From positions 85,126,001 to 85,190,000 of the forward strand of contig CM097886.1 in assembly GCA_044892525.1 (NCBI GenBank): a stretch of 64,000 bases of DNA, given 5' to 3'. Positions within the stretch are counted from its first letter, which is position 1. Each line of letters opens with the position of its first letter. The DNA comes from Schmidtea polychroa (Eukaryota). The notes under the pieces were generated by a model. The model was not told the origin of the DNA and made no database searches. It was given only the letters and a program-made list of their open reading frames with translations. Shown here piece after piece: positions 2,804 to 55,531 of this stretch. A program made the position numbers and the translations under genes.

Positions 2804-2858
2804 ACTGCTATACGAAAATTTTTATTTACAATTATTTACATTGATCATTCATCTTTAA

Positions 2859-3560: not shown

Positions 3561-3742
3561 TTTCTATAATATATACATAATTAATAATTGCGCTACAGTG
3601 CGGCTTATACTTATACATTTATATGTTATTTTATAATCAGGGTTACAGTCCCTTTCATACTTTTACTGTACCATTAATTTTTTTTTTTTTTTGGTTGGGA
3701 TACAGGTCCCGATTTTTATATTTTTTATCTTTCCTCTTATCT

Positions 3743-4780: not shown

Positions 4781-5001
4781 CTTTGTCTAAATAATGATAT
4801 CATTAACTTAACGTTGTACGCTTATATCTGGTTTATTATTTATTTATTTTTATAATTCGTTATAGGAGTTGTTTTAGGAGTTTTTCGCTTAAGTTTACCT
4901 TTGGTAGATTTGGGGGGAATTTTTCTACACTACTATATAATATTTTACTGGATATATACGCCGATATTTACAATTTATTATATACAAAATTATTCGTCTC
5001 A

Positions 5002-6390
5002 CTACTCAGTCCTACTCTTCTCATCTCGCCTCACCGCTATTTTTATGTATATAGTGTCGTTTCTCGTCATGTCTTCTACTTTCCGCTGTAGGATGAAATT
5101 TGGTGCTCCAGTTGCTGGTCCTTCTTCTTCCAAGGGCCTTTGGTAACATACGAGGTTTCCCGCTGTATGGAAACTCTGTTCGTGTATACTTTGATAGTTC
5201 ATCATTGCGAGGTCTATTTTTGCTTTGAATGGCCATTCTATTAACTCGTCGTATGGCCCTTTGCACATCAAGAAGAATACTGAGAAATGCGTTCCGTATG
5301 CACTTCCATCCCCATTGGGGTATGCTTTCATTTTCATTTTATACCCGTTTTTCCATGAGTAGAATGCTGGACTTAGTAATGTTGTATCCTTTCCATTTCT
5401 CGCTCTCTGCATCTTCTCTTTTACTCCCGTTATTTTCCATATGTACGGAGCCGTAGGTATTAATTCGTTGAGGTTTAATTCGCTTACTTTTTGATGTAGT
5501 TCTTTCACCATAATGTTGCTAGTTTCTACTAGGTCTGTCTGTATCTTTGTACTTGTTCTCGCCTCTTCAAATGCTTCCTTTTCTTCCAATAGTTCTTTTA
5601 CCAACGCTTTTAGCGAGACTATTTCTCTTTCTAAGTTTTCGGTTTTCCTTTCGTTTTCCTGTAATACCGTTGACCATATTTCCGCGTGTGTTGATACGTT
5701 TTCTGCTAGATGTTGGGGTAATTCCCCTCGGTGTAATTGTTTCGGACATCCCCATTTTCCTAGCACACACGTTATCTTTTTTCTTTCACACTCTTTTAGG
5801 TGTTGAGCGAGTTTTATTACTCCGGGTTTATCGCATTTGTTGGGGCATTCTCCTCTGAATTCTGCGCACATTTTCTCCTCTTGTATGTTGTGATGTTGAC
5901 TGATTAGTTTCTTCCAGGTGTCGTTTTCTCCGCAATACTCGCATTTCTCTAGTCTTTCTTCACATCGACTTTGATGTTCTGCTTCTTCATTGACTTTAAT
6001 CTCTTCTTGGCAACGTTTGCATTGACTGATTTTATACTCACATTGCTCCATATGTTGCCTCACTTCCCATATCCCTCCTCGCCAATTACATGGGGTGTTT
6101 TTACATCCTAGGTTTGCATTCAACATATCCTTTACAGCTGCTTTATCTTCGTTTGTATCTCCCAAACTTGTTATCATTGTTTCTTTGCATACTGGGCACC
6201 ATTGTGGTCCCTTCTTTATTATCTCCTCTACGCATTCTCTGCACATTCTGCATCCACATCTGGTTTGGTGAGGTTCTCTTAATAAGCTCTTGCATATCCC
6301 ACACGTTACATGGTTGTGTATTCGAATTGTGGTGGACTTTCTGACTTGTTCAACAATTTCTTTGAATTCTTCTCGTTGTCGCTTATCCAT
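5002..6390 (-). CDS. Intronless full-length TRAF-family protein (RING, TRAF zinc fingers, coiled coil, MATH)
   Basis: CGICKSLLREPHQTRCGCRMCREC...CPVC; several CX3-4C..H..C fingers; YIWKI...LSPAFYS..GYKM...YPNGDG..GTHFSVFF...GPYDELIEWPF. Confidence 0.95.
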   Translation of the reverse strand: MDKRQREEFKEIVEQVRKSTTIRIHNHVTCGICKSLLREPHQTRCGCRMCRECVEEIIKKGPQWCPVCKETMITSLGDTNEDKAAVKDMLNANLGCKNTPCNWRGGIWEVRQHMEQCEYKISQCKRCQEEIKVNEEAEHQSRCEERLEKCEYCGENDTWKKLISQHHNIQEEKMCAEFRGECPNKCDKPGVIKLAQHLKECERKKITCVLGKWGCPKQLHRGELPQHLAENVSTHAEIWSTVLQENERKTENLEREIVSLKALVKELLEEKEAFEEARTSTKIQTDLVETSNIMVKELHQKVSELNLNELIPTAPYIWKITGVKEKMQRARNGKDTTLLSPAFYSWKNGYKMKMKAYPNGDGSAYGTHFSVFFLMCKGPYDELIEWPFKAKIDLAMMNYQSIHEQSFHTAGNLVCYQRPLEEEGPATGAPNFILQRKVEDMTRNDTIYIKIAVRRDEKSRTE

Positions 6391-6479
6391 TTCTATAATT
6401 ATATATATACATATATTCGTTACTGGTACAGTTTCGTATTTTTATTTACAGTTATTTACATTGCTATTTTAGGTTATAT

Positions 6480-7007: not shown

Positions 7008-8020
7008 CTATATACGTGAGCTTGGAGGGCGCTGAGCATTCCAGGCCTCCACCCACTGTTCCTGCTTGATATTACTTGGTCGTTTTACACGATGTTGAAA
7101 ATTTCTTATTCTGGCCATTTCTAGTTCTCCGTGATGCCGTCTATCTTTGATTATTTTTATTGTCCCCCCCGTTATGATTAAAAAGGCCCCTGTTATTATT
7201 ATGCCGCTGATCCACATCATCTGTTTTATGCTTATAATTTCCGCTTTTTCCTTGCTCGTTATTGTTGATATTGCTTCTGTGCTTTTTAGATTACCGTCTT
7301 TGCCATTTCCTTTCATCATTCCTCGTATTCTTGCTATTTCCTCGTTCATACCTTCCTTTGCCATTTTTTGTATTTTCTCCATCTCCTCCTCGGATACATA
7401 ATTGTCTTGATGTTTCTCACTGTTTTTCTTGCGTTTTCCTTGCTCATCTTTTTCATCATCGATTTTTCTTTTCTTCCCTCTTTTCCCAGGGTATCGTCGA
7501 CATTCTCTCGCTGTATCTTTTCTCCAGATGCATATTGTGTATTCTTTTGGAGGTTGTTGCTGTATTACATATTGTAGACAGTCTTCACCCGGTCTTAATC
7601 TTGCGATGCAGACTTTGTGTTCTTTTCTTGGCTGGAGTTGCGTTATCACTACCTCACCTCCTTTTCCCAGGTGTACCTCCTTCCCTTTGACTTTCGTTAT
7701 TCTCTTTCCTTCTCGATTTCGGTATGCTTCTTGTATTCTTACTTCCGTTATTGGTTCTGCATCTTCATTTTTTAACACTAGTCTCTGATAAGCTCTAGAC
7801 ATACATCTTCCTAATATACACCTTTCTTTTAAATCCCATTCTTCTTTTAGATCCCATTGCTGCTCTTGTACTTGTTTTTTCTTTTCTTGTTTTAGTTCTT
7901 CCTCTTTGTTGTCCTTATTTTCCGTTTCTTTGGCTTCTTTTATCGTTCTCATTCCTCCCTGGGCTGTTATCATTTCCACCATTGTTAGTACGAGTATCAT
8001 TATCATCATATTTGTCTCCA
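7008..8020 (-). other. C-terminal type I membrane protein (signal-like segment, Cys-containing FN3-like ectodomain, TM, short tail)
   Basis: MMIMILVLTMVEMITAQG; VVITQLQPRKEHKVCIA; WISGIIITGAFLIITGGTI. Confidence 0.55.
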
Positions 8021-11000
8021 TTTCTTTGTTGGTAAAAAGTAGGCATACCCTCTGTTTTCCACTATTCGTCTTTTCTTCTTGCTTTATTCGGTTTCTCGGG
8101 TTATTTTCCTCTTTTTTCCTACTCGCGTCGTTATTTTCTTGATTATTCTCCTCTGATTTCTCTTTCTCTTTATTCCCGTTTCGACCTTTTTCATTATTAT
8201 CGTCGTCTTTATCGTCTTTATCGTCTTTATCTCCCCCGCTATCGTTTAAAATGTCGTCCTCGACATTTATATCATTCAACAATCTGCGGTATGCCGTTAG
8301 CACTCTGTTTCTTGCTAATTTTGCTTCGAGTTCGAACTCCTTTCTGCCTGTTGCTACATGTCTCTTTCTATTCCATTCTTTCACTAATTCTCTTAATTGT
8401 ATCCGACGATGTTTCCCGATTCGCTTTTGTTCGTTTAGATTCTGCGTGAATTTGAGATCTTCCCTGTTTAATACGATCATTATGATTTTCGGAGTTCCTC
8501 CTTTTGTTAGTGTATTTTTAACCATAGCATTTTCTCCGTTTTCGTAGAACTCATTTATATTTATTGCATATTTATTGCTTTGTGGTATTCTCCATGTTAG
8601 CAGCAACTTCATGGCTTCTAAGTTCATCCGTATCGTGTTCCATTGGAACTGTGACGTGTTTTTACAGATATTTTCTACCTCAGTTCTTGTAGCATTTTTA
8701 CAAATGAATCTAATCATTTCCAAGTTTGGTTGTATTGTTGCCCAATCCATGGTAGAATTTCCTTCGTTTGATCTTTCGTCAAGTCTCGAACCTGATTGAT
8801 GTAGTATATGTAATGTTTTCGGGTGTATATTTGTTATGGCTGCATACATCATTGCTGTTTCCCCTTGTTCATTTTTTGCATTAGATTCTTCTCCGAAGTC
8901 TCTGAGAATTCTTATGATGGTTATTGCTCTGTTCTCTTTTGCTGCTAAAATGGCTTGTTGTAATGGTGTTCTTGAGTCTTTTGTTGGTAAGGTGAATGCT
9001 AGTGGTATAAATGTTTTTATTTTTCCTATGTCTAGATTTGTGGTCTGATCTCTTGCGTAGGTGTGTACTGTTTTGGTTATTTTTGCTAGTATCGCTTCAT
9101 CGGATAGATCTTGCATTTCTTCAAAGAATACTTCTTTAGCCTTACGTACTACTATCTCTTGGTCGGAGTTTATTGTCTTTGGTTTACTTATTGTTGCTAT
9201 ATCGGTTATTGGTTGATCGACTTGTTCCTCAGACTCTCTTGCTTTTACTTTCTTCATTTTTATCTTTTTCTTGTTCGAACTGTTAATGCGTTCCTCTGCC
9301 GTTAGAACTTGAATAATACTTAGGTAGTTTTCTCGAATGTTGTTCATAGTTTCCATCATATGTAAAACACTCACGGTGTCCCAAAATTTTACTTGTACTT
9401 TATCGGTAAATTGAGATATAGCTTTTTCGAAGTTGGTAATTCGTTTTCTGATTAGTTGTTCGTCTTTGTGATTTGAGAATTTTATGCCACGTTGTAGTAG
9501 TTGATTTGGAATTTCGAATAGGTGATGTCCTCTCATCGCTTCTCTCATCAAGGTGTTTTCTCCTTTGGTAAATGTTTCGTTTATATCTACCATATAGTCG
9601 TTTTTTATCGGGTTCCTCCATGCAATTAGTATTCCAGTAATTGTTGTTAATTTCTCTTTGATTGCAGTTAATAGCCCGTCATACATGTTTCCTATCTCTC
9701 TATTATCCTCGTATGATATTAGATCTACTAAGATTATGAAGGCTTCCGTACTTTTCCCTTCGATTGCATGATGTAATGCATTTTTCTGGTTGTGATCTTG
9801 TGTGGTTATCTTTGACCCAGTTTCAAGTAATGCGATGATAATATCTCTAGCTTTATCCCGATTGGCTGCTATCATTAGTGGAGTGTAACCTTGGTTGTTT
9901 TCTTGATCTGTCGAAATGTTACAATCGCGAAATGCTTCAATTGTTTCTAATATCTGTTCGTTACTACCCACCTTTAAAAGCTTGTGCAGGGGTGTGTCTC
10001 CGTAATGGTCTGTGATCGTGAATAATATAGGCCATTGACTTTTAACTACCCTGAGCAATGGGTGTGTTCTTTCTCGGTTTGCATAATTTTCGATCATTGT
10101 TAGCAGACCTCCCAATATCTCAAAATCTAATCTGTCTTCTGCCCATCCGGGCATTTTAACTTTTACTTCCTTTATGATTTTCTCGGCTTCTGATGGTTGT
10201 AACCCTAATCGATTACCTGTTGGTTCGTTTATTTGCTGTAACATGTTTATTCTATACGTTTGTGATCTTGTCGTTAGTGTACGTCCTTCTGGCTGACTGG
10301 TGGCGGTTTTCGGAATTGGCTTACATCGTGCAACATTTACGTATATTGGTCTTGTAAAAGGGTTGTTCACTAATCGTACTCTTACATTAGTTTCTCCGAC
10401 GAATAGAATCTCATACGGCCCTTTACCGTTTCGTTGTAATTTTTTGGTGGTTCCTGGAATTAATTCTGGTGTTTCAATCATCACCCAATCGCTTGTTTGA
10501 AACGTATGCTGTTTGACGTTTTTCTTTCTATCATGTAACTCTTTGTAACTTTCTTGATAAAATTTTATATTCAATCCTGCGGTTTCCCAGATTTCCTGCA
10601 TTCTTTCCTTGAACTTAGTTACATAATCGTCTATTTCCATGTATTGTGATATCGGTGGCTGATATTCTAAATCCATTGGCATATTGCATTCTCTGCCGTA
10701 CATCAACTTGAACGGACTCATCTTTGTGGACGCGTGAATCGACATTCTGTAAGCCATTAGACATAATTTTATATATTCATCCCAGTCTCGTTGATGACGA
10801 TCGACATAATTTGATAACATTTGAATCAGTGTTCCATTGAATCTTTCTGTCATACCATTAGTTTGTGGATGGTACGGTGATGTTCTTAATTTTGCGATCT
10901 TGAAGTAGTTGGTGGGGAATTTTGTCAAATAATCTGTGATTACCAATATATATATATTTCCTCTATCTGATTCTGGTAGTGGACCGACTACGTCCATTGA

Positions 11001-14000
11001 TATCATTGTCATTGGTTCTGCTGGCACTGGCATTGGCTTTAATGGTGCCTTCCATTTTGTTCCCGTGTTTTTTCTGGTTGCGCAAGTTATGCAATTTTTC
11101 ACCCATTCCGTTACATCCTCGGTCAATGTAGGCCAAAAATATTTTTGTTTCATTCGTGCCAACGTCTTTTTAGATGACATATGTCCTCCGAGTCTTCCGT
11201 CATGGTATTGTGTTAGTAGATCTTTACGTCTATTCTCGGGAATGCACATCAGTCTTTTCTCGCCATCCATTATCAATAACCAATCTTTCTCGATAATATA
11301 TCGATGTCGATGTTTATCCATATGCTCCTTCAATTTTTGATCTTTCCCATATACCTCTGCTTTCCCTGTTTTCACATATTCAATGATTTGCTTCAACTCT
11401 GTATCCTCTTGTTGGTCTTTCCGTAATTGGCAAAAATCTAAATCTTCTGCTACCATCAGACATATTCGTTGCATTTCGTGATCTACTAAATCCGGAAAGA
11501 TAAATCTGGACATACAATCCGCATTGGCATTCGCTCTTCCCGCTTTGAATTTTATGAACGGTGAATATTCTTGTAACTGCATTGCCCATCGCATCAATCT
11601 ACTTGAAGCTTCTTTGTGTTGACCAAGCCATACTAATGGTTGATGATCCGTGGTGATACATATTTCGTGTCCCCATAACAAATATCGAAAATGTTTAATT
11701 GCTTGTATGATTGCTAACGCTTCTCTCTCGGTTACGGAATAGTTTTTCTCATGCTTTTTAAACGTTCTACTGTAGTATCCAATCACTCTTTCTTTTCCTT
11801 CTTCGTCGAGTTGTCCCAATATTGCTCCGGCTGCATATCCACTTGCATCTGTTGCTAATAAGAACGGTTTCTTGAAATCAGGATGTACTAGTATTGGGGC
11901 TTCGATTAATTTATCTCGCAATGTCTCAAACGCTTTTTGTTGTTCTGCACCCCAAATAAATGAAATATCCTTTTTCACTAATTCCTGTATTGGTTTCGCA
12001 ATACCTGCATAGTTTTTGATGAATTTTCGATAATATCCGCATAGTCCGAGAAATTCTTGAACTTGGGTGACAGTTTTTGGTGCTGGACATGTTTTTATTT
12101 TTTCTAGGTTTCTTGGATCTGGTTCTTTGCCTTTTGCTGACACTATGTGTCCTAAGAACGTAACTTTTTCTTTTGCCCAATCACATTTGGATGGTTTAAG
12201 TTTCAGTTTCCATTGTCGTAATCGAACGAACACATTTCTGATATCTTCCAAATGTTGTTCGAATGTTGCTGAATATATTAATAAATCATCAATATATACC
12301 ATACACTGCTTGATCCCGTGTGTGACAAAATTCATACATCTCTGGAATGATGCTGGGGCATTGGTCAGTCCGAACGGCATTTTCCTGAATTGGTATAGAT
12401 CTCGGCCCAATGTGAATGCTGTTTTCTCTCTCTCTTCCTCCTTGACTTTGATCTGCCAATATCCACTTTTTAGATCTAAAGATGTAAAATATGCGGCCCC
12501 CTGTAACATAAGTAACATCTCATTGATGTCTGGTAACGGGTATGTGTCTCTTTTTGTTACTGCATTTAATTTCCGATAATCGATACAGAATCTCTGAGTA
12601 CCGTCTTTTTTCTTCACCATGACTACTGGAAATTGCCATGGCGAACAACTTGGTTCGATCACTTGTGCATCTAGCATTTTTTGTACTTCGGCTTCGGCTA
12701 TCTCTTTTTGCTTCTCTGCTAGTTTGTATGGACGTAGTGCGATTGGAGTTTCGTCTATTAATGGTATTGCGTGTAATGTAACATCGCATGCTCCCAAATC
12801 TAAGTCCGAAATTGCGAATATATCTTTATATTCTATCAATAATTGTTGAAGTCTCTCCTTTTCTTTTTCCGTTAGCAAGGTGCTATCAATTATCCATAAT
12901 TCGTCCGCTTTCGTTGTTTCGTTGGTGATTTTTGGTAATTCGATGTCTATCATGGGTGTCAATCTACCCAATCTTTCATTTTCATATATGATCTTGTCTT
13001 CTTCCTCGAAATTTGTGATGTTAATTGGTATTTCCCCGTCTTCATTTATTGTTATTATTTCTCTTGCTAATGGTAATTCTCGTCGTTTTTCGAATGATTT
13101 GCTTGGCTCAAAAATGACTTCTCCTTCCATTCCTGCATCCACTTTTATTTGACATATCATCTGTGATTTTGCGGGTACAATTATTTTCTCCGGACATCTA
13201 ATTATTGCGTTCATCTTGCATATTCTACCCATTTTGTCTTTTAGACACATTGTTGTTAAATCGATTACTACTTCCTTAAACAATTCCGGCATTAAATCCG
13301 TTCCGATTATACATGGTTCACTCAGTTTGGGTATCACCGCTAGATACGTTTCAATTTCGTTATCCTGATATCGTAACGTAGTCCACCATCTTCCTACTAC
13401 GTCGACGGTTTCTTTACTGCATGCAATAATATGGATAGTTGTTTGTTCGATATCTTTCCAACATTTACTGGGTATTTGGTTTATTGCTATTGCTGATACG
13501 TTTGCTCCGGTATCTATCATTGCGCTTGTCTCTTTCCCGTTGATTTGGATCATGACTGTTACTGCCGCACCTCCTGGTGAACTCATCACTGCTATCGTTC
13601 TTACGTCGTCCGCTTGGTCTACACTTTTCGTTCTTCGGGTCGGCATATAGTTCATCCCTGGTTGACTTGGTAACTGTGGATACATATTTTGTGTCATGGT
13701 CAAAGCTGTTTGTTGTCCAACGATATCTGGTGGTACGTAACTTCCGTTGGCTATCCAGGTATTTGTTTTTTCTTTCTCCCAATATGGTGCTGTTTCTATT
13801 GGCTTTTCATTCGGGTTTCTACTTGGATATGGGTATTTGTCATTCCCGTTGTCGTCATCATCACTATCGCTGCTGTTTGATCGATTCCTAAATCTGTCTA
13901 AGAATTTTGGTTTGTTCTTTTTCAGTTGCGTCCTTGTTGCTTCATCATACATTGTTTTCCGAAATCGTCTACCGACTTCCTCGTCAGTTCCTTTTATTTT

Positions 14001-17000
14001 TGTCAGTATTTTGATCAATCGTTTTATTCTGTGTATGTCTTTAGAATGACCGTGCAACACCATTGTTTTTGCCAAAAATGGTAGAAAGCCTACTATCAAT
14101 TTCCAATTTACCTTCTTTTCTCTCTTATAGATATCAAAACACGCTAACATTTGAGTTAATATTACTCTGACAATCTGGATAATAAGAATGATTCCCAATA
14201 TTCCTGCCATCATTTGACCGAATACTAGAAATCTTCCCCACATTGCTTTCATCATGTTTGACGTGGCTTGTTGAAAATGATCAGGTGACAATAATAGTTC
14301 GTAATTGGGGCCTGACTGGAAATTCGTTCCCCCAGTTATGGTAACCATATTCGATAGAATGGATTCCCGTCTTGCTGGGAATAATACGTTTAATCGTGCC
14401 GTTTCTAAATCCTCTGGTGAGTACATACCTGCTTTTGACACATCAATTGGTTTGAAATCTTGTTCTGTTGCGAGTTCTATTAGTCCAAACTTTTTAGGCT
14501 CTTGTACTTCGGTTTTTACTGGTAACATTATCCATTTCCCATCGGGTTTTTCGTATAACGGTCCGTATGCATTTGAACAGTTAAAGGTATTCGGGTAAAA
14601 TCCAATTGGGTTCATTATCCTAGTGACGGGTTGAACGAATCTGTTTCGCCCCTTGTAACTAATTTCTAACTCGTTTGCACATTTCCCTGGTGGAATTGTG
14701 GGCTTTCTTGGCAGTCGCGCAAATGTCTTGGTACATGCATACGTATACATTACCTCTCCCACCATTCTACCAAAATGTCCATCCGGTAACGGGAGTGATG
14801 GCATTGTGTTATCTGGGTGTGTTATTGCGATGGCTAATTTTGTTTTTAGTATCTCTTTATTCAATGAACAGTCATTTTGTATAAGATCGTAATACACTTT
14901 TTGCATTGTCGTTTGTCCTCGGTGGAACAAGAAGTCCATCTTATTATTGGCATACAGGTACAATTTTACGTCCTCTGTTGCTACCTTTCCCACTGCTCGG
15001 TCTATTACTTGCCTTGACATGTAGATACCTGCGTAGTTCGTCCGGTATACTATACTGTCACATTTGGTGGTCTCTTTTTCTCTAATGAATCTCATGCCGA
15101 TATCTGGGTCATCTGTAATTAATGCCGTTGGTGTTTTTTGGGTTGTGAGTCTCTTTTCTTTGGGGGATGGCGGAACTGGTTTCCCATTTCGCATCCTTAC
15201 GTTTCCATTCTCTTCATCGTCGTCCTCGTTTTCGTAAATTTCTCCTTTTACTTCATTGAATAGAGCACTTTTTAACAATTGGAGTCGGCATTTTTGGGTG
15301 TTAGCTTCATATATTATAGTCGAAATTCCCGTTCTACACACGTTTTCCGTAGCTCTGCATGCTGGGTTGGTTTTCATTTGATAGTTGTTCGCGTCGAATT
15401 GTGCTTCGTATTCCTTCAACTCTACTGTGTAGGACTCAATTACTACCACTCCTGATATCACCTCTCCTCTGATCGTATATGTGCCTCCGTTACATGATCC
15501 ATCAGTTGATTTTACTCGTCCGGCTACATAGATACTTTCCGTCTTGATCATTCCGCTTTGTCCGTGTATTGTTACTCCATCCCTGATTCTCATCGCTCCG
15601 GTTCTAAAAAGCTCTTTACAGTCTTCCCGTTGTATAGGTACTATTTCTTTATCTAATCCAGGTAATATGAGGGTTGAATATGAGTATTGTCCACAGTAAT
15701 ATGCCAACACTTTCTTCGATACTACGCATTCTCTAGCTTGCGTTCTAATGAAATCTGATTCTTGGTATACGTGATAGGAGACTTTCTTCTTTACTATATC
15801 TAATTTATTCGGAGACGCCTGTCTACATTCCTCTATATCTCTCAGGGAGTATCTTTCTCCTATTATCGAATTGTCACAGTCGTAAATAGTAAATCCCGCG
15901 GCTCCACTGGTGCAGAGCATCCATATCATCATGGTCATCATTAGTGAATTAATCGACGCTTTTCTGCTGGCTGGGTCTTTCAATGGCAATTCCCATTCTA
16001 GCTCGTTTAGTAACTTCTTCAACCGAATTTGCATTGATCTCTCTTGCTCGTTTTTTCGTGGCGCTTGTATGAGTCTTTTCCACCCACCGGCGCGGATAAT
16101 ATGTGGTTCGATTGTATTTTCAATGATTGTGACGGTCATTTCTACATGATTTGCGAATTGTTTGTTAGGTATTTTCCTTGCTGCTAATCCCATCAAATTG
16201 TACATTAGATACGTTAATACTACTAAATGATGTTCGTCGTCGTTTGCGTTTAAAGTTAATTGTTCAATCACTCTTCTTGTCTCTTCCCAATCGGTTTTAG
16301 TGGTTTTTGTCTTCTCTTTGATTAATTTCGGAATTATTCCGGATATTGTATTCCATAGTTGTCTGGCGTCTACGCTTGCTACTTTTCGTTGCCATAACCG
16401 TCGCAATTGTGGGTTCGTTATTATTAGCATATCTTTTACTAGCTCTCGTATCCATTTTTCGCCTCTTTCGATAGTTGGCTGGGCCTCCTTTAGATCCCAC
16501 ACTATTTTATCCAGTTTCTCTAATCTGACTTGTCCTTGTTCTTGTTTCAGTTGTTCTCTAGTTTTAAATTCCGGTTTTTCTCCTTGCTTCTTGGGTCTCC
16601 CTTTTGCCCGTTTTTCCATCATTGTTCCGGCTTCCCTTGTATTTTCATAATTCGGGTTTCTCTCGTTATCCGTTCTTGGCAATGAGCTATCGTTGTTTCT
16701 CAGCCATTCGTTCCATTCGTCTATTATTTTGTCCGTTTGACCTTCTGGTGTTGCTTTCGTTGGTCCTTTCTGTCGTTGGAATTGTTCGTCGGTTTCGGTT
16801 TCTGTTGTATTATCGATAATCTCCTCGATACTCAGCTTATTTGGCTGCTGATAGCTAGTTGACGGTTGGCTTGTTGTCCATATTTCGGCTCCTGTCGGCC
16901 ATCTTACCAGGATTGGTGATCTTTCTCCAGCTCCTTCATCGCTGTCTTCCAATATAATTTCCTCGATTTCCTCGGTTTCATTCGTTTTACTTGCCACTTT

Positions 17001-20000
17001 GTTAGGGCTTGGTGTACTCAAGCTACCTTTCGTAGGTTTACTGGATTTGCTCTTTCTTTTAATCGGTTTTCCCAATGTTTCTGCCATTGTCAATACATTG
17101 ATCTCCCCCAATCTCATGGGTGTTATTCCGACATCTGCATTATCATCCAACGATTTTCCGAATAGTTGTAGGTGAAATGGAGTTTCGTATGCTAGTTTCT
17201 TTTTTAACTCTCTGATCTTTGTTGTTGGATGTACTTCTGTATCCTCAATGCTTTTGTCGGGATACTTGACTCGGATACGATACCTTTCCTGGGTATCTTG
17301 TGCCCATTCTTGGTTTCTCCATTTCCTAATAATTTGTTCTAGCTGTTCTGGGTACCATTCGTTATATTGTCTGTATTCCTCAATCGCTTTCGCCATTTCT
17401 CTTAGATTGTGGATATTCTCTGATGTCTTTAGGATGATGTTAGCCAATGCTATTACTTGACGTTTTTGATTTTTTGTTCCCGTTGCTAAGATATCACCTA
17501 ATTGCTTATATCTTTCCTTCTCTTCTCGTTCTCGAGCTTCCATCGCTTCTTCGCTGTCCATATCGGCATATTCGCGTTCTTTCTTTCTCATCGCATGAAT
17601 ATGTCTGGTTTCCGTTTCACTTTCTGATGTAACATCCGTTTCGCTTTCGTCGTCCGATGTCGATTCTATTTCGTCCTCTTCGTATTTTGGAGGTTCATCT
17701 TCCTCTTCTTCTGATTCGCTTTCTATCTCACCAATGTCTGTTTCCACGAAAATCCCTTTCCTGATTTCCCATTCTTTGTTTTCCGCATTCCACGTCCTTT
17801 CCCATGGGGTTCGTCTGCAGGATCTAACACTTAGTTTCTTTATTTTTCCTTGAAGCTCTTTTTCTCTTAGCCACTGTTGATGAATTTCAATTATCTCTAC
17901 TGATTTTTGATATAGCGTTTTCATCCTGTCTCGTATTTCTTTCTGGTATGTTATATCTCTTGTTCGGAATTCGTCCATGGGCAATATTCTGATGATTTGA
18001 TGATTATCCCACATTCCCATTTCGCTTAGCGAGGTGTCGTCTTCGGCCCGTAATATTATTTTATCGTACATCATGACTACGTCATCTATCATCCCGTCGC
18101 TACTCTCGCTTCGTACTTTTTCCGTTATCTCTTGGTTTATCTTGGTTACTAAGTCATCCACCGTACTCTGATTAGTCATCTTTATTCGTCGTTTCTCCTC
18201 GTTTGGTAACCATATGGTTATTTCTAATTTCTGCGGTTGCGTTTCTTTCAACCTTCCATATTTGTGGATCAAATTTATGGTTCTCCAATCGCTCATCCTG
18301 AGCAATTCTGTATCTCGTAATCGGCTCATTAGTTCATGCATGTCTGGAGTTCGTCTTGCTATGAGTAAATCCCAGTTATCTTCGACTTGTTCTTGAATTT
18401 GTTTGATTAATTTATCTAGATTTCGTCGCAAGGTGCATTGTTTTATTTGTTCCAGCTTCAGCTTGATGTTAAAATCATACTCGGCCTTGGCGTCTTTAGC
18501 CCATTCGTGAATATTTGCTGGTTGCTTCTCTTTATACAATTTCAATATTTGAGTTTCTCCTGGCCAGATCAATGCATCTATTAGGTGCATGTCTGGCTTA
18601 ATTTGTTCTCCTTGATATTGATATAAATACTCTTTCTTTCTCGAGTTGCCCAAATGTTCTCTTATCCAATCAAAAAGCTCGTCTGTGACTGCATTTTTTA
18701 TCCATATTCTCTCGAGTCCTTTACTCGTTCCGATTTTTATTACATAGCGTGTTGTCTCCGCTTGTTTCATTTTTTCCATATACTTCTTTATTATCGCTTT
18801 TTCCTCGTTTGGTATTAGATCTTTTTCGTTTCTTTCTAGTTTCATTATCTTTTGTAAGAAGCGTTTATATGGTATAAGGTCGATGAACTCCTGGTTTCTT
18901 ACTACCACTGGAAGTATTTCCTTTACTTGTTTTATCGCTTCTTCTCTTTCTTTTCTCAATTTCATTTCGATATTCTCGTCTTCGCTTTCGCTTGTCACGT
19001 CGCTTTCTCTTTCATCCTCATCTGCTCCGATCTTTTCTCTTAGTTGGTCGATATTTTCATTTAACTGTAACATTTCTCCACCAAGGCTACTCACATAATC
19101 CTCATCGTCATCTGTTGACAACACCTTCTTTGTTGTCCTCATCATATTAATTCGTAAATTTCTCATTCTTGGTACTTTCTTTAACTTTTTGTTCTCGAGT
19201 ATCGTTAGCTCCTCTGAGTCTAATTCTCGTATCATATTATGCTTTAGATGATTAATCTGTTTTCCATTTTCGTTATTTTCTGCTTCGGCTTCTGTTTTTG
19301 TTTGCTCATTTTCTCTTTCGATTTTATCTTTTATCTTTTCCCAAAATATTTTCTGAATTCTCTGATTTCCTTTTAGCGGTGTTGTTGAATTTTCCTTTTT
19401 TGCTGCTGGAATTGTTTCTTTCGGTTTCTCTGGTTCGCTCATAGGTACAACTCTTGGATTTTTACCGTAATTGTAACAATATTGCTCCTTTATCTCCTTT
19501 ACCATCCTCATCATATTTATTCGTAGTGGTTGTTCTTGTCGCTGCTGAATTCGCTCTCTTTTTATCCTTTCTTCTTCAGCTTGTAGTCTTTGCCATTCTT
19601 GTGCATGTTGTTGCACTTCATAATTGTTAAGATTCTCGGTGCTTCTCATCATGCGTATATTCTGGGTTTGTTGTGGTACTTGCTCTTGTCTCGGTCTCAT
19701 CATTTGTTGCATCATCTGCTTCATTTGTGAAATTTCTTGCATCACATTCATTTGCTTTCCCTCACTAGGATTACTTTGTCGTTGCGGATTTGGTGCATAG
19801 TTATTATTTCGCTGTGGTGGTCGTTGCTGTTGGCTCCTTTCTCGACAGTCTCTTGAGATATGACCTGGTTGCCCGCAGTTAAAACATCCTCTCGATTGGC
19901 ATATATTTTCCGTGTGTCCTCGTCGTCCACACCTATTGCAATTTGCGTTTCGGTAACAATCTCTATCCCAATGTCCTGGTTTACCGCATGTTCGGCATTG

Positions 20001-21302
20001 TTTGTTATCGTTCATATTTCGTCGATTATTAAAGTTGTTCCCATTGTTCGAGTTGTTGCGTTCACTGTTATTCCCGTTTGATCGTCCTTGTGGTGGTTTG
20101 AAAATTTGATGCGCACCTGGTATAAACTGATTCATCTTTGGTTCATGATTATTGTTATCTCCATTTTCCGTTTTCACCGCTGCTGTTGCGATTCTTCCTT
20201 CCTCTTGCATGACATTCATTTGTGCCGGGAGGTGTAGTTCGCATCTTGTGGCCCAATCTATAGCTTCCTCTAGTGTTTTACACATTTGACATCCCACCGA
20301 GGCCCTTACCTCTTCTCGGCGTAGTCCTTCTATGAAGTACCCAATTAAGTTTTCCTCCGGCAAGTTTCCGTTCATGGCCTTCTTTGCCAATCTTCGCAAT
20401 TCACTTGCGTATAACGTAATTGACTCGTTTGCTCTTTGTTTTCTACTTGCCAGTTCACCTAACGCTTGATTTATCGGTTTGCTGGCTCCGAATGTTTTTC
20501 TCAAAAATGTTTTGATGTTTTCCCAATTGTCTAATTTCGTATTTCTTTCTTTTGCTTCCAGATACACTTCGAGTGCGCTATCGCACAAAAACAGAGGCAT
20601 TCGTTTACTAATTGCTTCGGATGTCCATCCACACACATCGATATAGACTTCAAAATTGGTTATGAACGTTGCCAACTTGTTCGCATTCCCGTTGAACGGT
20701 TCGCCTCTAAATTTTTCTTTATATTCGTCGGTTTTTGCTACATTCATCTTGATTGGTTCTTGAAATGCTAAAATTTCTTTTAAATTTTCTAATGATGTAG
20801 CTAAATTATGGATGGATAATTCTTCTGTTGACCCGGTTAGGTTGTTTGTTATATCGGATAGACTTTCTCTACTTCTAGATCGACTGGGCGTATGTCCGGC
20901 TGTGGGGTTTTCTTGATCGTATATCGGTGTTTTGTGGGGTCTTTTTGCTCCTTGTGATATTCCTCTCTGCTGCCTAAATGATCGTCCTCTTTTGAGTTGA
21001 TCTAATTCGTCTCCTGAAAATAATACGTCTCCTGGCTTACTTGAAGATCTAAGGTTGGGTTTATCCGTGATTTTCCTTTTACTCTTTTCTGTCTTTTCAC
21101 GTGGATTTTCTACGGTTAGCGTCTGCTGAATTGGTCGAGTTCGGTTTTGATATTGTCTTCCTTTGTGCGGGTTCTGAATTGCTTTTCCTGGGTTGTTTGT
21201 ATATTCTCTAGATTCCTCTTGAGCTGGTTCTGAATTGACTTGGTTGGATTGATGTCTACAATGAAAATATGATATCGTGTTGCCTTTGCTTACACGAATC
21301 AA
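7008..21302 (-). CDS. 4764-codon Gag-Ubl-Bcl2-Env-PR-RT-RH-IN-ANK-membrane polyprotein (first in-frame ATG at 20747)
   Basis: Uninterrupted ORF of 14.3 kb with the motifs listed in the sub-features. Confidence 0.95.
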   Translation of the reverse strand: MIRVSKGNTISYFHCRHQSNQVNSEPAQEESREYTNNPGKAIQNPHKGRQYQNRTRPIQQTLTVENPREKTEKSKRKITDKPNLRSSSKPGDVLFSGDELDQLKRGRSFRQQRGISQGAKRPHKTPIYDQENPTAGHTPSRSRSRESLSDITNNLTGSTEELSIHNLATSLENLKEILAFQEPIKMNVAKTDEYKEKFRGEPFNGNANKLATFITNFEVYIDVCGWTSEAISKRMPLFLCDSALEVYLEAKERNTKLDNWENIKTFLRKTFGASKPINQALGELASRKQRANESITLYASELRRLAKKAMNGNLPEENLIGYFIEGLRREEVRASVGCQMCKTLEEAIDWATRCELHLPAQMNVMQEEGRIATAAVKTENGDNNNHEPKMNQFIPGAHQIFKPPQGRSNGNNSERNNSNNGNNFNNRRNMNDNKQCRTCGKPGHWDRDCYRNANCNRCGRRGHTENICQSRGCFNCGQPGHISRDCRERSQQQRPPQRNNNYAPNPQRQSNPSEGKQMNVMQEISQMKQMMQQMMRPRQEQVPQQTQNIRMMRSTENLNNYEVQQHAQEWQRLQAEEERIKRERIQQRQEQPLRINMMRMVKEIKEQYCYNYGKNPRVVPMSEPEKPKETIPAAKKENSTTPLKGNQRIQKIFWEKIKDKIERENEQTKTEAEAENNENGKQINHLKHNMIRELDSEELTILENKKLKKVPRMRNLRINMMRTTKKVLSTDDDEDYVSSLGGEMLQLNENIDQLREKIGADEDERESDVTSESEDENIEMKLRKEREEAIKQVKEILPVVVRNQEFIDLIPYKRFLQKIMKLERNEKDLIPNEEKAIIKKYMEKMKQAETTRYVIKIGTSKGLERIWIKNAVTDELFDWIREHLGNSRKKEYLYQYQGEQIKPDMHLIDALIWPGETQILKLYKEKQPANIHEWAKDAKAEYDFNIKLKLEQIKQCTLRRNLDKLIKQIQEQVEDNWDLLIARRTPDMHELMSRLRDTELLRMSDWRTINLIHKYGRLKETQPQKLEITIWLPNEEKRRIKMTNQSTVDDLVTKINQEITEKVRSESSDGMIDDVVMMYDKIILRAEDDTSLSEMGMWDNHQIIRILPMDEFRTRDITYQKEIRDRMKTLYQKSVEIIEIHQQWLREKELQGKIKKLSVRSCRRTPWERTWNAENKEWEIRKGIFVETDIGEIESESEEEEDEPPKYEEDEIESTSDDESETDVTSESETETRHIHAMRKKEREYADMDSEEAMEAREREEKERYKQLGDILATGTKNQKRQVIALANIILKTSENIHNLREMAKAIEEYRQYNEWYPEQLEQIIRKWRNQEWAQDTQERYRIRVKYPDKSIEDTEVHPTTKIRELKKKLAYETPFHLQLFGKSLDDNADVGITPMRLGEINVLTMAETLGKPIKRKSKSSKPTKGSLSTPSPNKVASKTNETEEIEEIILEDSDEGAGERSPILVRWPTGAEIWTTSQPSTSYQQPNKLSIEEIIDNTTETETDEQFQRQKGPTKATPEGQTDKIIDEWNEWLRNNDSSLPRTDNERNPNYENTREAGTMMEKRAKGRPKKQGEKPEFKTREQLKQEQGQVRLEKLDKIVWDLKEAQPTIERGEKWIRELVKDMLIITNPQLRRLWQRKVASVDARQLWNTISGIIPKLIKEKTKTTKTDWEETRRVIEQLTLNANDDEHHLVVLTYLMYNLMGLAARKIPNKQFANHVEMTVTIIENTIEPHIIRAGGWKRLIQAPRKNEQERSMQIRLKKLLNELEWELPLKDPASRKASINSLMMTMMIWMLCTSGAAGFTIYDCDNSIIGERYSLRDIEECRQASPNKLDIVKKKVSYHVYQESDFIRTQARECVVSKKVLAYYCGQYSYSTLILPGLDKEIVPIQREDCKELFRTGAMRIRDGVTIHGQSGMIKTESIYVAGRVKSTDGSCNGGTYTIRGEVISGVVVIESYTVELKEYEAQFDANNYQMKTNPACRATENVCRTGISTIIYEANTQKCRLQLLKSALFNEVKGEIYENEDDDEENGNVRMRNGKPVPPSPKEKRLTTQKTPTALITDDPDIGMRFIREKETTKCDSIVYRTNYAGIYMSRQVIDRAVGKVATEDVKLYLYANNKMDFLFHRGQTTMQKVYYDLIQNDCSLNKEILKTKLAIAITHPDNTMPSLPLPDGHFGRMVGEVMYTYACTKTFARLPRKPTIPPGKCANELEISYKGRNRFVQPVTRIMNPIGFYPNTFNCSNAYGPLYEKPDGKWIMLPVKTEVQEPKKFGLIELATEQDFKPIDVSKAGMYSPEDLETARLNVLFPARRESILSNMVTITGGTNFQSGPNYELLLSPDHFQQATSNMMKAMWGRFLVFGQMMAGILGIILIIQIVRVILTQMLACFDIYKREKKVNWKLIVGFLPFLAKTMVLHGHSKDIHRIKRLIKILTKIKGTDEEVGRRFRKTMYDEATRTQLKKNKPKFLDRFRNRSNSSDSDDDDNGNDKYPYPSRNPNEKPIETAPYWEKEKTNTWIANGSYVPPDIVGQQTALTMTQNMYPQLPSQPGMNYMPTRRTKSVDQADDVRTIAVMSSPGGAAVTVMIQINGKETSAMIDTGANVSAIAINQIPSKCWKDIEQTTIHIIACSKETVDVVGRWWTTLRYQDNEIETYLAVIPKLSEPCIIGTDLMPELFKEVVIDLTTMCLKDKMGRICKMNAIIRCPEKIIVPAKSQMICQIKVDAGMEGEVIFEPSKSFEKRRELPLAREIITINEDGEIPINITNFEEEDKIIYENERLGRLTPMIDIELPKITNETTKADELWIIDSTLLTEKEKERLQQLLIEYKDIFAISDLDLGACDVTLHAIPLIDETPIALRPYKLAEKQKEIAEAEVQKMLDAQVIEPSCSPWQFPVVMVKKKDGTQRFCIDYRKLNAVTKRDTYPLPDINEMLLMLQGAAYFTSLDLKSGYWQIKVKEEEREKTAFTLGRDLYQFRKMPFGLTNAPASFQRCMNFVTHGIKQCMVYIDDLLIYSATFEQHLEDIRNVFVRLRQWKLKLKPSKCDWAKEKVTFLGHIVSAKGKEPDPRNLEKIKTCPAPKTVTQVQEFLGLCGYYRKFIKNYAGIAKPIQELVKKDISFIWGAEQQKAFETLRDKLIEAPILVHPDFKKPFLLATDASGYAAGAILGQLDEEGKERVIGYYSRTFKKHEKNYSVTEREALAIIQAIKHFRYLLWGHEICITTDHQPLVWLGQHKEASSRLMRWAMQLQEYSPFIKFKAGRANANADCMSRFIFPDLVDHEMQRICLMVAEDLDFCQLRKDQQEDTELKQIIEYVKTGKAEVYGKDQKLKEHMDKHRHRYIIEKDWLLIMDGEKRLMCIPENRRKDLLTQYHDGRLGGHMSSKKTLARMKQKYFWPTLTEDVTEWVKNCITCATRKNTGTKWKAPLKPMPVPAEPMTMISMDVVGPLPESDRGNIYILVITDYLTKFPTNYFKIAKLRTSPYHPQTNGMTERFNGTLIQMLSNYVDRHQRDWDEYIKLCLMAYRMSIHASTKMSPFKLMYGRECNMPMDLEYQPPISQYMEIDDYVTKFKERMQEIWETAGLNIKFYQESYKELHDRKKNVKQHTFQTSDWVMIETPELIPGTTKKLQRNGKGPYEILFVGETNVRVRLVNNPFTRPIYVNVARCKPIPKTATSQPEGRTLTTRSQTYRINMLQQINEPTGNRLGLQPSEAEKIIKEVKVKMPGWAEDRLDFEILGGLLTMIENYANRERTHPLLRVVKSQWPILFTITDHYGDTPLHKLLKVGSNEQILETIEAFRDCNISTDQENNQGYTPLMIAANRDKARDIIIALLETGSKITTQDHNQKNALHHAIEGKSTEAFIILVDLISYEDNREIGNMYDGLLTAIKEKLTTITGILIAWRNPIKNDYMVDINETFTKGENTLMREAMRGHHLFEIPNQLLQRGIKFSNHKDEQLIRKRITNFEKAISQFTDKVQVKFWDTVSVLHMMETMNNIRENYLSIIQVLTAEERINSSNKKKIKMKKVKARESEEQVDQPITDIATISKPKTINSDQEIVVRKAKEVFFEEMQDLSDEAILAKITKTVHTYARDQTTNLDIGKIKTFIPLAFTLPTKDSRTPLQQAILAAKENRAITIIRILRDFGEESNAKNEQGETAMMYAAITNIHPKTLHILHQSGSRLDERSNEGNSTMDWATIQPNLEMIRFICKNATRTEVENICKNTSQFQWNTIRMNLEAMKLLLTWRIPQSNKYAININEFYENGENAMVKNTLTKGGTPKIIMIVLNREDLKFTQNLNEQKRIGKHRRIQLRELVKEWNRKRHVATGRKEFELEAKLARNRVLTAYRRLLNDINVEDDILNDSGGDKDDKDDKDDDNNEKGRNGNKEKEKSEENNQENNDASRKKEENNPRNRIKQEEKTNSGKQRVCLLFTNKEMETNMMIMILVLTMVEMITAQGGMRTIKEAKETENKDNKEEELKQEKKKQVQEQQWDLKEEWDLKERCILGRCMSRAYQRLVLKNEDAEPITEVRIQEAYRNREGKRITKVKGKEVHLGKGGEVVITQLQPRKEHKVCIARLRPGEDCLQYVIQQQPPKEYTICIWRKDTARECRRYPGKRGKKRKIDDEKDEQGKRKKNSEKHQDNYVSEEEMEKIQKMAKEGMNEEIARIRGMMKGNGKDGNLKSTEAISTITSKEKAEIISIKQMMWISGIIITGAFLIITGGTIKIIKDRRHHGELEMARIRNFQHRVKRPSNIKQEQWVEAWNAQRPPSSRI
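8330..10200 (-). other. Two tandem ~340-aa modules, each containing ankyrin repeats
   Basis: YGDTPLH, QGYTPLMIAA, NQKNALHHA; DSRTPLQQA, QGETAMMYAA, EGNSTMDWA; matching C-terminal INETFTKGENTLM / INEFYENGENAMV. Confidence 0.85.
10270..11440 (-). other. Integrase with HHCC, first D and E, GPY motif; catalytic core internally deleted
   Basis: YHDGRLGGH...CITC; ISMDVVGPL; TKFP joined directly to TNYFKIAKLRTSPYHPQTNGMTERFN; KGPY. Confidence 0.88.
11500..12780 (-). other. Reverse transcriptase and RNase H
   Basis: RFCIDYRKLN, LDLKSGYWQI, MPFGL, YIDD at 12285-12296; TDASGY, EREALA, TDHQPL, NANADCMSR. Confidence 0.95.
13230..13580 (-). other. Aspartic protease
   Basis: AMIDTGANVS (DTG at 13506-13514) and CIIGTDLM. 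Confidence 0.92.
14050..15950 (-). other. env: Envelope glycoprotein, class III fusogen of chuvirus/mononegavirus type, with internal signal peptide and TM anchor
   Basis: Signal LMMTMMIWMLCTSGAAG|FTIYDC; ECVVSKKVLAYYCG; GSCNGG; CDSIVYRTNYAGIY; FGRMVGEVMYTYAC; CANELEISYKG; TM FLVFGQMMAGILGIILIIQIVRVIL. Confidence 0.8.
16060..16520 (-). other. Bcl-2-like helical domain
   Basis: About 150-aa helical block ending EPHIIRAGGWKRLIQ (BH2-like W/HIxxxGGW); degenerate BH1-like region TRRVIEQLTLNANDDEHHLVVL. Confidence 0.6.
17085..18760 (-). other. Three putative ubiquitin-like (beta-grasp) domains at about 18530-18760, 17980-18235 and 17085-17285
   Basis: Each ~70-80 aa with an N-terminal beta strand, a T(V/I)xxL helix and a late G/Q/D-x-x-L-x-D pattern, e.g. 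YRIRVKYPDKSIEDTEVHPTTKIRELKKKL...LFGKSLDDNADV. Confidence 0.5.
19845..20747 (-). other. gag: Gag: capsid-like region plus three CCHC zinc knuckles
   Basis: PFNGNANKLATFITNFE...MPLFLCDSALEVY; CRTCGKPGHWDRDC, CNRCGRRGHTENIC, CFNCGQPGHISRDC. Confidence 0.92.
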
Positions 21303-23232: not shown

Positions 23233-23712
23233 CTAACTGAAGTAGATGGTGTGCTTCTCTTTTATTACACATGTGCACATAGAACAACGGATTAAACCGG
23301 CGGCGCATTCGTCACAATGGCTAAGGTGCCCACAAGGTAGAATCAGAATTTTGACAGGTCGCATCTTGCAACTGTTACAAGTTCTCAAGGCCGCTGCTTT
23401 CTCTACTATTGATGTTCGTATCCGCTGAGACAGAGTTTTGACTCGTTCGCGTAACCTCACATATTCGATGTTCAGAGCGGGGTCGTCGAGACGTTGCTGA
23501 AACCATTGGTAATGAATAGACAAGTCGGTATCGGTATTTGTTGATCCTAATCTGTCGGTTAGAAAGTTTTGTTTGGATATCAGCGGTGCGTTGTGGCTTT
23601 GTTGTTCTAGCAGTTCTATTTGTTTCAGTTTTTCTCTTAATGTTTTTATTGAATCATTTTCTATTTCGATGAACCGGCTTAGCTGTTGTAGATGTTGTCT
23701 AGCGTCTGACAT
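23233..23712 (-). CDS. 159-aa coiled-coil plus IAP-type C-terminal RING protein (no BIR)
   Basis: CNSCKMRPVKILILPCGHLSHCDECAAGLIRCSMCTCVIKEKHTIYFS* has the IAP/MGRN-type RING spacing and terminal xxFS. Confidence 0.85.
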   Translation of the reverse strand: MSDARQHLQQLSRFIEIENDSIKTLREKLKQIELLEQQSHNAPLISKQNFLTDRLGSTNTDTDLSIHYQWFQQRLDDPALNIEYVRLRERVKTLSQRIRTSIVEKAAALRTCNSCKMRPVKILILPCGHLSHCDECAAGLIRCSMCTCVIKEKHTIYFS

Positions 23713-24163
23713 ATCTAAATGAATGTGTTGTTATTATTTGTTCTTACTAGTATTAGCAATAATATTATTACGTTGTATTTAATATTCGTTTCTCTTTTAT
23801 TTGTTATTGTTTCTAGCTTTCGTATTTTATTTAGTCTTTAACAATCCCCGTCGTATTTTTGACTTTAATCATTTAATTTTATTGTCATTACTTTCTTTTG
23901 TCTCCCCTTTTTAATTTAATAAATTAAAATTAAACAAAGTAATTAATTCCCGTTTCCTTCTCTCATCATACTCTATCATATACATTCATACTCATTTAGG
24001 TTCGTTTCATTCACCACATGCTCTATTTCAAACTCAGACAGTTCGTATCATTTTATTGCACTATAATTCGTTTCAACCCCGATTCCGTTTTTATCATAAT
24101 TAATTAAAATGTTAATCTAACACATCATAACACAAAATTAGACAATCAAACAAATCAATATAC

Positions 24164-24181
24164 ATCCCGGCTGAGCCCCCA
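24164..24181 (-). promoter_or_regulatory. Primer-binding site, tRNA-Pro type
   Basis: Plus strand ATCCCGGCTGAGCCCCCA matches the vertebrate tRNA-Pro 3' end ATCCCGGACGAGCCCCCA at 16/18; lies 7 nt inside the inferred LTR end. Confidence 0.8.
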
Positions 24182-24724
24182 AAAATCATGTTGGCGTATG
24201 TGGGGGAAAAGAAAATATATAGGCATGATTATCATACACATCAGGTATCATTATTCTACTCAGACCATTCCCTCACACACTCCAAATGATCATTCGCATA
24301 TTCCCACGTATGAGCCCGTGGTGATGTTCCACGTTGGTACTGCTCACACGGGTTGGAAAGAGTTAGCAGGTGAGCCCCTGCCTTAGGACTACTCCTAACC
24401 CTTTCTCGGTTCGGGTTCTACGGTGCCTTAGAAGGTCTTACCCATTCTTTACGCATCATTCGGTCCGACCCTGGTCCAAAAGGTACGACATTTAAGTTTC
24501 TACTATATATTCATGATCCTTCTCTCATGCAATTCAACCGTAGCAAATCATACATACAATTAACACAATCAAAGAAAATCGAACAGTTATATTAGAACGG
24601 AACATCAAACTACATTCAGCATTGTTTAAATAAATACAAAACATTAAAGATTAGTCACGAGATAACGTCGCTTCTTCAAGTTCGTTCGTAATAGCAGGGG
24701 AATCGAGACCCGAGAGAGAATTGG

Positions 24725-25489
24725 CTACGAAAATGCTTCTCCTTCTGCGAGCATCTCGTCGATGTCAACGGGCAACCGGCGGTCTTCGAGGAATTTGATA
24801 CTGTCGGCCGGAACTACCCGGAATACTTCCTTTGTAGGGATGGAATGGGTAACTGTAATTTCCTTGATAGTCGATTTGGCTGCAGATAACGATGCTTCAA
24901 GCGCGGCCATGGCATTTCTCCGCTTCTGATTTTTTTCCGAACGCGTCAGCCGCTTACGCTTTCGATGGGGGAGTGTAGCTTCTGCTGGGGGCTGAATGAG
25001 GTGTGGCACGAGTACTGGAGCCAAGATAGGGTCCGATGAACCGCCAGCCATAGGTCGATAGCCCGAAAGAACTGGGGCGGGAATTGGCGGCATTTGTGGG
25101 CCATGCCCTTTACAACTGGATGTTGATGAGGTTTCAGCTAATTTGTGGTGCATTGGGAACACGTTAGTCCCATCTTGTATCGGGTACTCGCGAACTCGCT
25201 TTGCTAGTTCTGATTCGGAATACACCTTGTGCAGTGCCTCTGATTGGGCCTTTATGGTTAGCCTCTGGCACCTGCTTTCTTCCAGGAGACTGTCACGGCA
25301 GTGCTCCAAACGCAGAATCTTGCTCTTCTCCTCCTTCATTTGTGGTGGGGAGAACCACGTTCCCTCATAGAGGTCAATTCTCTTCTTCAATTCCCCGATG
25401 TACAAGTGGAGCTGTGCGATATCGGCATTTTTATCAGCACAGGAAAAGCAAGGTCTGAGGGTTTTCCCGGAACTGGTTGAGGTATTCAT
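24725..25489 (-). CDS. LTR-encoded 254-aa protein: CxxC plus coiled coil, Pro-rich segment, basic NLS-like stretch
   Basis: ATG-initiated ORF preceded by TTAACAATTTAG; PCFSC then heptads; HRKRKRLTRSEKNQKRR; no family recognised. Confidence 0.72.
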   Translation of the reverse strand: MNTSTSSGKTLRPCFSCADKNADIAQLHLYIGELKKRIDLYEGTWFSPPQMKEEKSKILRLEHCRDSLLEESRCQRLTIKAQSEALHKVYSESELAKRVREYPIQDGTNVFPMHHKLAETSSTSSCKGHGPQMPPIPAPVLSGYRPMAGGSSDPILAPVLVPHLIQPPAEATLPHRKRKRLTRSEKNQKRRNAMAALEASLSAAKSTIKEITVTHSIPTKEVFRVVPADSIKFLEDRRLPVDIDEMLAEGEAFS

Positions 25490-27775: not shown

Positions 27776-27850
27776 ACCTGTAATCGTGAAAAATTAAAAG
27801 TGGTTGTCGTCTAATTTTTCACGTTACATATATAGTATTTTTCGTCCAAT
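27776..27850 (-). promoter_or_regulatory. Candidate LTR promoter (inverted CCAAT, TATA) followed by a short leader and 5' splice donor
   Basis: ATTGG at 27846-27850, TATATAT at 27828-27834, CAG|GTAAAA with GT at 27777-27776; same at 1368-1442 in the 3' LTR. Confidence 0.45.
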
Positions 27851-28505
27851 CAGGACGCTACCTGCTTGTATTTTTACTATTTATTATTATTTTTATGTTT
27901 TTTATTATAATATATTAGATTTTAATGACTTAACTTATTTCTTATTATTATTTTATTTATTTTCTTATTTTTATTATTTTCCTCCTATTTTTCCTGTAGG
28001 TTTATTGCTACTTTATTGTAATATAATTTTTTGTTTTAATTAGACTTAAAGATAGTTTTATTTTTTATTTATTTCTTAAATTTCTCTTTTATTTGTTGTC
28101 ACTTTTTTACTTATTTTATTCTATTTCATCTGCTGGGTCCTAAATCGCTTTATTTCTAAATCTCAAGGGGTTTATTGGGTTTTATTTAGTTTGTTTTACT
28201 TATTCTTATTCTCTTATTGATATTTTATTGTTCCTTTTTGATTTATTAGCGAGAATTTGATGGTACTTTATATTTTTATTTTATTTCGTTTATTTTTCAA
28301 GGATTACTTTTCTATTCGCTCCAGTTTTCGAAACTCCACGTTTTAGCCCAACAAAATCAAGAAATAATACTCAAAGACCGGAATGAAGAGTGTATTGTAT
28401 ACACGAAGAAGATGACGATAGATCAGAAGAATTGATAGAACCAGTCATGCATAATGTTGAGAGAAAAAAACCCCAAGAAGACCCGGTTGTTTACATTTTG
28501 TCAGT

Positions 28506-55459: not shown

Positions 55460-55464
<5 letters not shown>

Positions 55465-55529
<65 letters not shown>
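55465..55529. repeat. (TA)n microsatellite; shorter one at 50642-50670
   Basis: Pure TA run. Confidence 0.95.

Positions 55530-55531
<2 letters not shown>

Follow-up and report, generated by a model that had tools for sequence, protein, structure and literature searches.

The window, the whole 64,000-nucleotide stretch of DNA analysed here, carries on its minus strand a giant LTR-bounded element of ~30.57 kb whose polyprotein holds an envelope glycoprotein (Env) in the same frame as Gag and Pol. This is very probably a young Burro-type Ty3/gypsy element in which an in-frame Env of the chuvirus family, kept under purifying selection, likely acts as a class III fusogen for cell-to-cell spread. 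What is new here is that env is kept in 146 of 150 copies with a dN/dS of about 0.04 and that the embedded envs form a single branch; on these three observations, Env is likely to be a fusogen that works and that was acquired in ancient times.

The giant element and its polyprotein

The features of the element, in the order in which its minus strand is read, were as follows.

24189..28353, minus strand: 5' LTR, ~4.17 kb, with TG...CA ends and a 6-bp terminal inverted repeat
24164..24181, minus strand: primer-binding site (PBS) for tRNA-Pro(TGG), 7 nt after the LTR
23236..23730, minus strand: accessory ORF upstream of the polyprotein, encoding a RING finger (Pfam zf-C3HC4_3, E 7e-7)
7008..21302, minus strand: polyprotein frame, stop to stop, 4,764 codons, likely start Met at 20747
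19842..20597, minus strand: Gag capsid and three CCHC knuckles (Retrotrans_gag E 1.4e-9, zf-CCHC E 2e-10; knuckle motifs)
17043..17315, minus strand: ubiquitin-like module, weak (Pfam ubiquitin E 0.02, below the cut-off; E 6e-4 in family B)
16080..16289, minus strand: Bcl-2-like module, weak (Pfam Bcl-2 E 0.02, below the cut-off; E 1e-4 in family C)
15894..15971, minus strand: predicted internal signal peptide of Env, aa ~1778-1803, from hydropathy
14238..15893, minus strand: ectodomain of Env (552 aa, 14 Cys), a member of the chuvirus/gB-type fusion glycoprotein family
14157..14213, minus strand: predicted transmembrane (TM) anchor of Env, aa 2364-2382, from hydropathy
14055..14111, minus strand: second, weaker hydrophobic stretch past the Env TM, aa 2398-2416, predicted not to span the membrane
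13281..13556, minus strand: aspartic protease (PR) with DTG (RVP E 2e-7; IDTGA motif at 13517)
11565..12617, minus strand: reverse transcriptase (RT) and RNase H (RH) (RVT_1 E 1.6e-35, RT_RNaseH E 5e-39)
10383..11243, minus strand: integrase (IN), with a 47-codon in-frame gap in its core at 10913/10914
8802..9947, minus strand: ankyrin repeats (Ank_2 E 7.6e-16)
7164..8009, minus strand: second predicted type I membrane protein, from hydropathy, ending the polyprotein past the ankyrins
5005..6441, minus strand: downstream accessory ORF, TRAF-like (RING, zf-TRAF, MATH; MATH_2 E 2.4e-25)
1..1945, minus strand: part of the 3' LTR, the remaining ~2.2 kb extending past the window start

The two LTRs were 99.93% identical over 4,174 columns (0 mismatches, 3 gap bases), a 4-bp target duplication, ATTT, lies at both flanks, and the window copy is young. 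The element has the Ty3/gypsy Pol order, PR-RT-RH-IN, together with LTRs and a primer-binding site, as expected of an HSV/gB-type GAG-ENV-POL errantivirus. In other copies the polyprotein frame runs up to 4,817 codons; an assembly artefact was considered as the source of the single frame and rejected because dozens of separate loci carry the same frame. The integrase gap, measured against another copy (L075), is present in the window copy despite the absence of LTR substitutions, and Pfam rve was found in L075 but not in the window copy.

A pattern that included 15 nt of the complement of the primer-binding site matched tandem tRNA genes, which ARAGORN called as tRNA-Pro(tgg). These genes stand in a long tandem array with a period of ~475 bp (L080, on contig C1 of genome G000 near 130.9 Mb), and the pattern gave 1,580 matches genome-wide, tRNA-Pro(TGG) being the primer tRNA of the giant element. 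Three further downstream ORFs of 347, 234 and 214 aa (2180-4786, minus strand) and a 254-aa ORF within the LTR (24728-25489, minus strand) gave no Pfam match over the cut-off, and units of ~80 bp lie in tandem in the 5' untranslated region (21977-22655). The insertion adjoins a host Brr2/SNRNP200 helicase gene with long exons (32060-38465, minus strand), and two stretches bounded by inverted repeats (47062-48048 and 52833-57422) are probably DNA transposons.

An earlier note on this DNA had described an internal signal peptide, a ~550-aa cysteine-patterned ectodomain starting FTIYDC and a TM helix upstream of the DTG protease in one ORF, and had read them as a chuvirus-type glycoprotein fused in frame between Gag and protease. 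Both the description and the reading hold on the minus strand: the ectodomain matched Pfam PF24664 (Monjiviricetes_fusion) with an E of 2.4e-74 and a score of 251 bits where the cut-off is 27, well outside what chance would give, with Gag upstream and PR-RT-RH-IN downstream. The signal-like segment is preceded by a basic stretch and ends in an A-x-G pattern, after which FTIYDC begins at 15893; the ectodomain has one N-glycosylation sequon. The Env TM is the top 19-residue hydrophobic window in the entire polyprotein ORF and is flanked by five K/R residues after it versus two before. As in HSV/gB-type errantiviruses, an ectodomain with conserved cysteines thus sits between a signal peptide, here predicted from hydropathy, and a TM. 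A second TM span downstream of Env was considered and rejected on hydropathy; the Hessa-scale sum was 6.9 for the second stretch versus -0.14 for the Env TM. The second stretch is conserved in families B and C, described below.

A class III fold is predicted for Env from profile homology to the chuvirus G, rhabdovirus G, gB and gp64 families. Its ESM Atlas neighbours were PF24664 clusters (0.97), rhabdovirus G (0.95), a cluster that includes herpes gB (0.94) and a cluster with baculovirus gp64 (0.92), although the recognition value of 1667 falls under the Atlas mark of 2300, which makes this score weak evidence. Borna G was a weak match in one database relative (P0014). An AlphaFold2 model built from an 8-row alignment (pLDDT 31, pTM 0.20) had, at that low confidence, extended strands over its first half and one long helix (330-358), a pattern compatible with the class III fold but no proof of it. 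PDB sequence searches returned chance matches or none, with no sequence match for Env. In the passages of PMC13524379 covered here, the Env type of GAG-ENV-POL elements is modelled as a gB-like trimer, and an AlphaFold model is given for Smed_errantivirus_3, which belongs to the same cysteine class.

Retention and selection across copies and families

Three families in the genome, that of the window and two we call B and C, share env in the same place, with the envs of B and C ~38% identical to that of the window. Family B has one 3,334-aa frame in the order Gag-Ubl-Bcl2-Env-PR-RT-RH-IN, and family C holds a knuckle, Bcl-2, env and PR within one frame. All 14 Env cysteines were invariant in eight sequences spanning the three families at ~38% identity. 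Families B and C, too, have a hydrophobic segment at the position ahead of env. Env and RT ranked the families alike (89/70/38% identity by env and 97/84/53-58% by RT, the family C RT slice containing one stop).

One family C locus (L067, on contig C52 of genome G000) has a 1,433-aa frame that runs from env through the C-terminal membrane protein and gave no RT, RH or IN match; it is a Pol-less derivative that retains both membrane proteins. The env of family B (L064-L066, L070-L074) was near-identical, by eye, to that of Smed_errantivirus_2, in contrast with the window's family, which is distant from the closest published row. This likeness would hint at between-species transfer if the host is another species.

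We chose copies by RT alone; out of 9,811 candidates 150 were scored, with identities of 97-99% throughout. Of these, 146 kept at least 90% of env (65 with a full env upstream, plus 56/60 and 25/25 of the remaining 85), so that env, whose absence or decay in most family members the earlier note had raised as grounds for doubt, is instead nearly always retained. The Gag-Env-PR order that the same note had proposed looking for in other copies was also recovered, with CA-Bcl2-SP-env-TM-PR-RT present in 55/60 and 25/25 copies, and env was unbroken and free of stops in 40/60 and 25/25. Open frames of at least 4,700 aa enclosed 74 of the 150 RT matches and 39 of 79 env matches. The four copies without a full env comprised one at a contig end (L014), two with internal deletions (L008 and L048) and one, L041, whose similarity to the element ends immediately upstream of RT.

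Env is under purifying selection. In all three comparisons with the sister subfamily its dN/dS was 0.03-0.04, as was that of Gag, and these ratios are rough because dS was near saturation (1.4-1.75). Domains with saturated dS were left without a ratio, and the rows for the C-terminal ectodomain of L050, L055 and L032 were excluded because these loci stop short of the region.

Topology, function and origin of Env

The simplest reading of the hydropathy is that the polyprotein is threaded through the ER. The ribosome would make Gag in the cytosol first, the internal signal peptide would then direct the chain into the ER, with signal peptidase cutting before FTIYDC, and the TM helix, followed by basic residues, would act as a stop-transfer. 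PR-RT-RH-IN would thereby be back in the cytosol, where the protease of the element itself would cut it free. For Pol to be cytosolic, the second hydrophobic stretch (aa 2398-2416) cannot be membrane-spanning, and it would lie along the cytosolic face instead. Flavivirus and alphavirus polyproteins use the same threading logic.

A single frame would yield Gag, Env and Pol at 1:1:1, which is odd for particle assembly barring splicing or some other control. Most Env might instead be translated from a message that is spliced or begins internally and places the signal peptide near the start, with full-length threading minor and the in-frame fusion serving to keep Pol readable. Such a message would ease the 1:1:1 problem, in-frame Met residues occur shortly ahead of the signal segment and within it (aa 1757 and 1788-1795), and spliced RNA is the normal source of retroviral env. 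However, Pol lacks a separate frame, which means that a Gag-Pol product still has to read through env or splice it out, and we regard this reading as rather unlikely. Four contig sets compared with the element gave no listed joint bypassing env, a result that does not show that such joints are absent. The literature passages covered describe neither fusion nor particles, and the glycoprotein could have ceased to fuse membranes for spread and been kept for another job, for example membrane tethering of assembly or a superinfection block, given that selection shows use and not which use. The full-length ectodomain, all cysteines, the signal segment and the TM are nevertheless kept across families at 38% identity, and we think such a change of function improbable.

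The origin of env was addressed with a profile built from eight envs, which returned 2,081 relatives. The top relatives were long chains, in 9/11 of the long ones scanned env precedes PR and/or RT in one chain, and a hydrophobic segment lies directly before env in most long relatives. Word-index homolog searches found none, and scans of metagenome and viral contigs for loci found none. Among the relatives, P0002-P0005 and P0014 are chains in which at least two protease-like stretches come after env, and P0144 has Ig domains fused upstream of a PF24664 glycoprotein. A midpoint-rooted FastTree tree of 54 rows was built from four of our eight envs, 16 chosen long matches and the first 34 of the 90 stand-alone-length matches found among 150 listed of the 2,081 relatives. 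The 16 top-scoring embedded envs, including that of the window, formed one branch (SH 100, stem 0.64) separate from the 34 stand-alone matches, with four other long rows placed among the stand-alone proteins, although clustering of embedded envs was favoured by choosing the tree rows with a profile of the same envs.

The earlier note had proposed an independent capture of an RNA-virus glycoprotein. On this reading the element's own lineage would have taken env from a chuvirus-like RNA virus in fairly recent times. In keeping with this, the best family is Monjiviricetes_fusion and the Atlas clusters are mostly negative-strand RNA viruses. A nematode study (Sacco et al. 2022) reportedly refers in its title to capture of an RNA-virus glycoprotein. 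In the passages covered of PMC13524379, moreover, the Pol tree does not unite the GAG-ENV-POL elements of different phyla in one clade. An independent capture may have occurred basally in the flatworm lineage. Capture by the window element itself, however, found no support: env occupies the same place in the three families and in six S. mediterranea elements at 31-64% identity, 9/11 of the long relatives scanned embed it, the embedded envs stand apart on their long-stemmed branch, and the same passages of PMC13524379 argue for an ancient acquisition. We hold such a capture to be very unlikely. A single branch of embedded envs fits a single old capture shared by the lineage, and env most likely entered an ancestor of the planarian Gag-Env-Pol elements a single time in the distant past.

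The second membrane protein and known systems

Past the ankyrins, the polyprotein of the window ends in a second predicted membrane protein, with a signal-like segment at 8009-7953, a ~245-aa ectodomain and a TM at 7220-7164; it is under selection, with a dN/dS in the window's family of 0.09, and it gave no Pfam or Atlas match. The polyproteins of families B and C likewise end in a signal-like segment, an ectodomain and a TM, their C-terminal ectodomains being 37% identical to each other, and the loci with such a protein at the polyprotein end, besides the window, were L062 (4602-5750, minus strand), L067 and L082. The family B ectodomain gave a weak model (pLDDT 45) with a best Foldseek E of 2e-4, mostly to FN3-domain proteins. 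Apart from an FN3-like motif, this FN3 reading is not transferable to the window protein, because no homology was detectable between it and the B and C proteins (hhalign probability 0.4%; tblastn).

These planarian elements might thread the polyprotein through the ER twice, in flavivirus style, with a gB-type fusogen before Pol and an FN3-type attachment protein after it forming a two-part entry machine. We put this forward tentatively and consider it doubtful; if true, it would answer how gB-type errantiviruses enter without herpes gD/gH/gL. The literature passages covered do not describe the second protein in their text, and figures may show it. If the second protein is the binding partner, it would address the entry question left open in the passages of PMC13524379 covered.

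The closest described relative is Burro/GYPSM1, whose published account (PMC6431247, seen in part) gives an element of more than 30 kb with LTRs and one ORF of ~4,800 aa (the range used for this comparison being ~4,800-5,100), with Burro1 having a single ORF of 4,873 aa. Like the window element, Burro/GYPSM1 has a Gag with three CCHC knuckles, Ubl and BCL2-like modules, ankyrins, and an in-frame env, placed after the BCL2-like module and ahead of PR, that gives matches to mononegavirus fusion proteins (PMC6431247). A MATH/TRAF module is present in both, in the window element as a separate downstream ORF, unlike in Burro/GYPSM1, and the BIR and dUTPase modules of the latter had no Pfam match in the window element, the published dUTPase call having used HHpred. 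The second membrane protein that ends the window polyprotein is not mentioned in section 7 of that account. Burro RNA rises in somatic tissues after smedwi-2 RNAi, according to the part of PMC8532177 covered. The likeness to Burro was drawn from the published description of its features.

Anakin carries its env downstream of pol. It is an LTR element with a glycoprotein of the same family, on a BEL/Pao backbone unlike that of the window element (PMC12440569, PMC13524379, both in part). The non-canonical nematode ERVs, as presented in the covered part of PMC13524379, resemble the window element in being Ty3/gypsy with ENV before POL, and differ in belonging to another phylum and a separate Pol clade. 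According to the same part, nematodes, bryozoans and flatworms all harbour GAG-ENV-POL elements with a gB-type env, and S. mediterranea contributes six; these, Smed_errantivirus_1-6 (HSV/gB-type, cysteine class C1a), have the same gene order and env type as the window element. By eye, the window env is colinear with that of Smed_errantivirus_5 across domains I-II; the cysteines agree, and about half or more of the residues are identical. Likeness to the published S. mediterranea env rows suggests a planarian host. Smed_errantivirus_5 is listed with one intact copy, whereas the window's family has at least 150 RT matches. The main text of PMC13524379, as far as covered, does not discuss polyprotein topology and has no single-frame or in-frame wording.

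The earlier note had stated that the env genes of retroviruses, errantiviruses, Cer and Anakin-type elements lie downstream of pol; these accounts show that an env upstream of pol has precedents. The Gag-Env-Pol layout is genuine, yet it had appeared in print before, in 2019 (PMC6431247) and in 2026 (PMC13524379), in the parts of both covered here, so the window element adds no new concept. Planarians are a place to test cell-to-cell spread of a gB-type retroelement.
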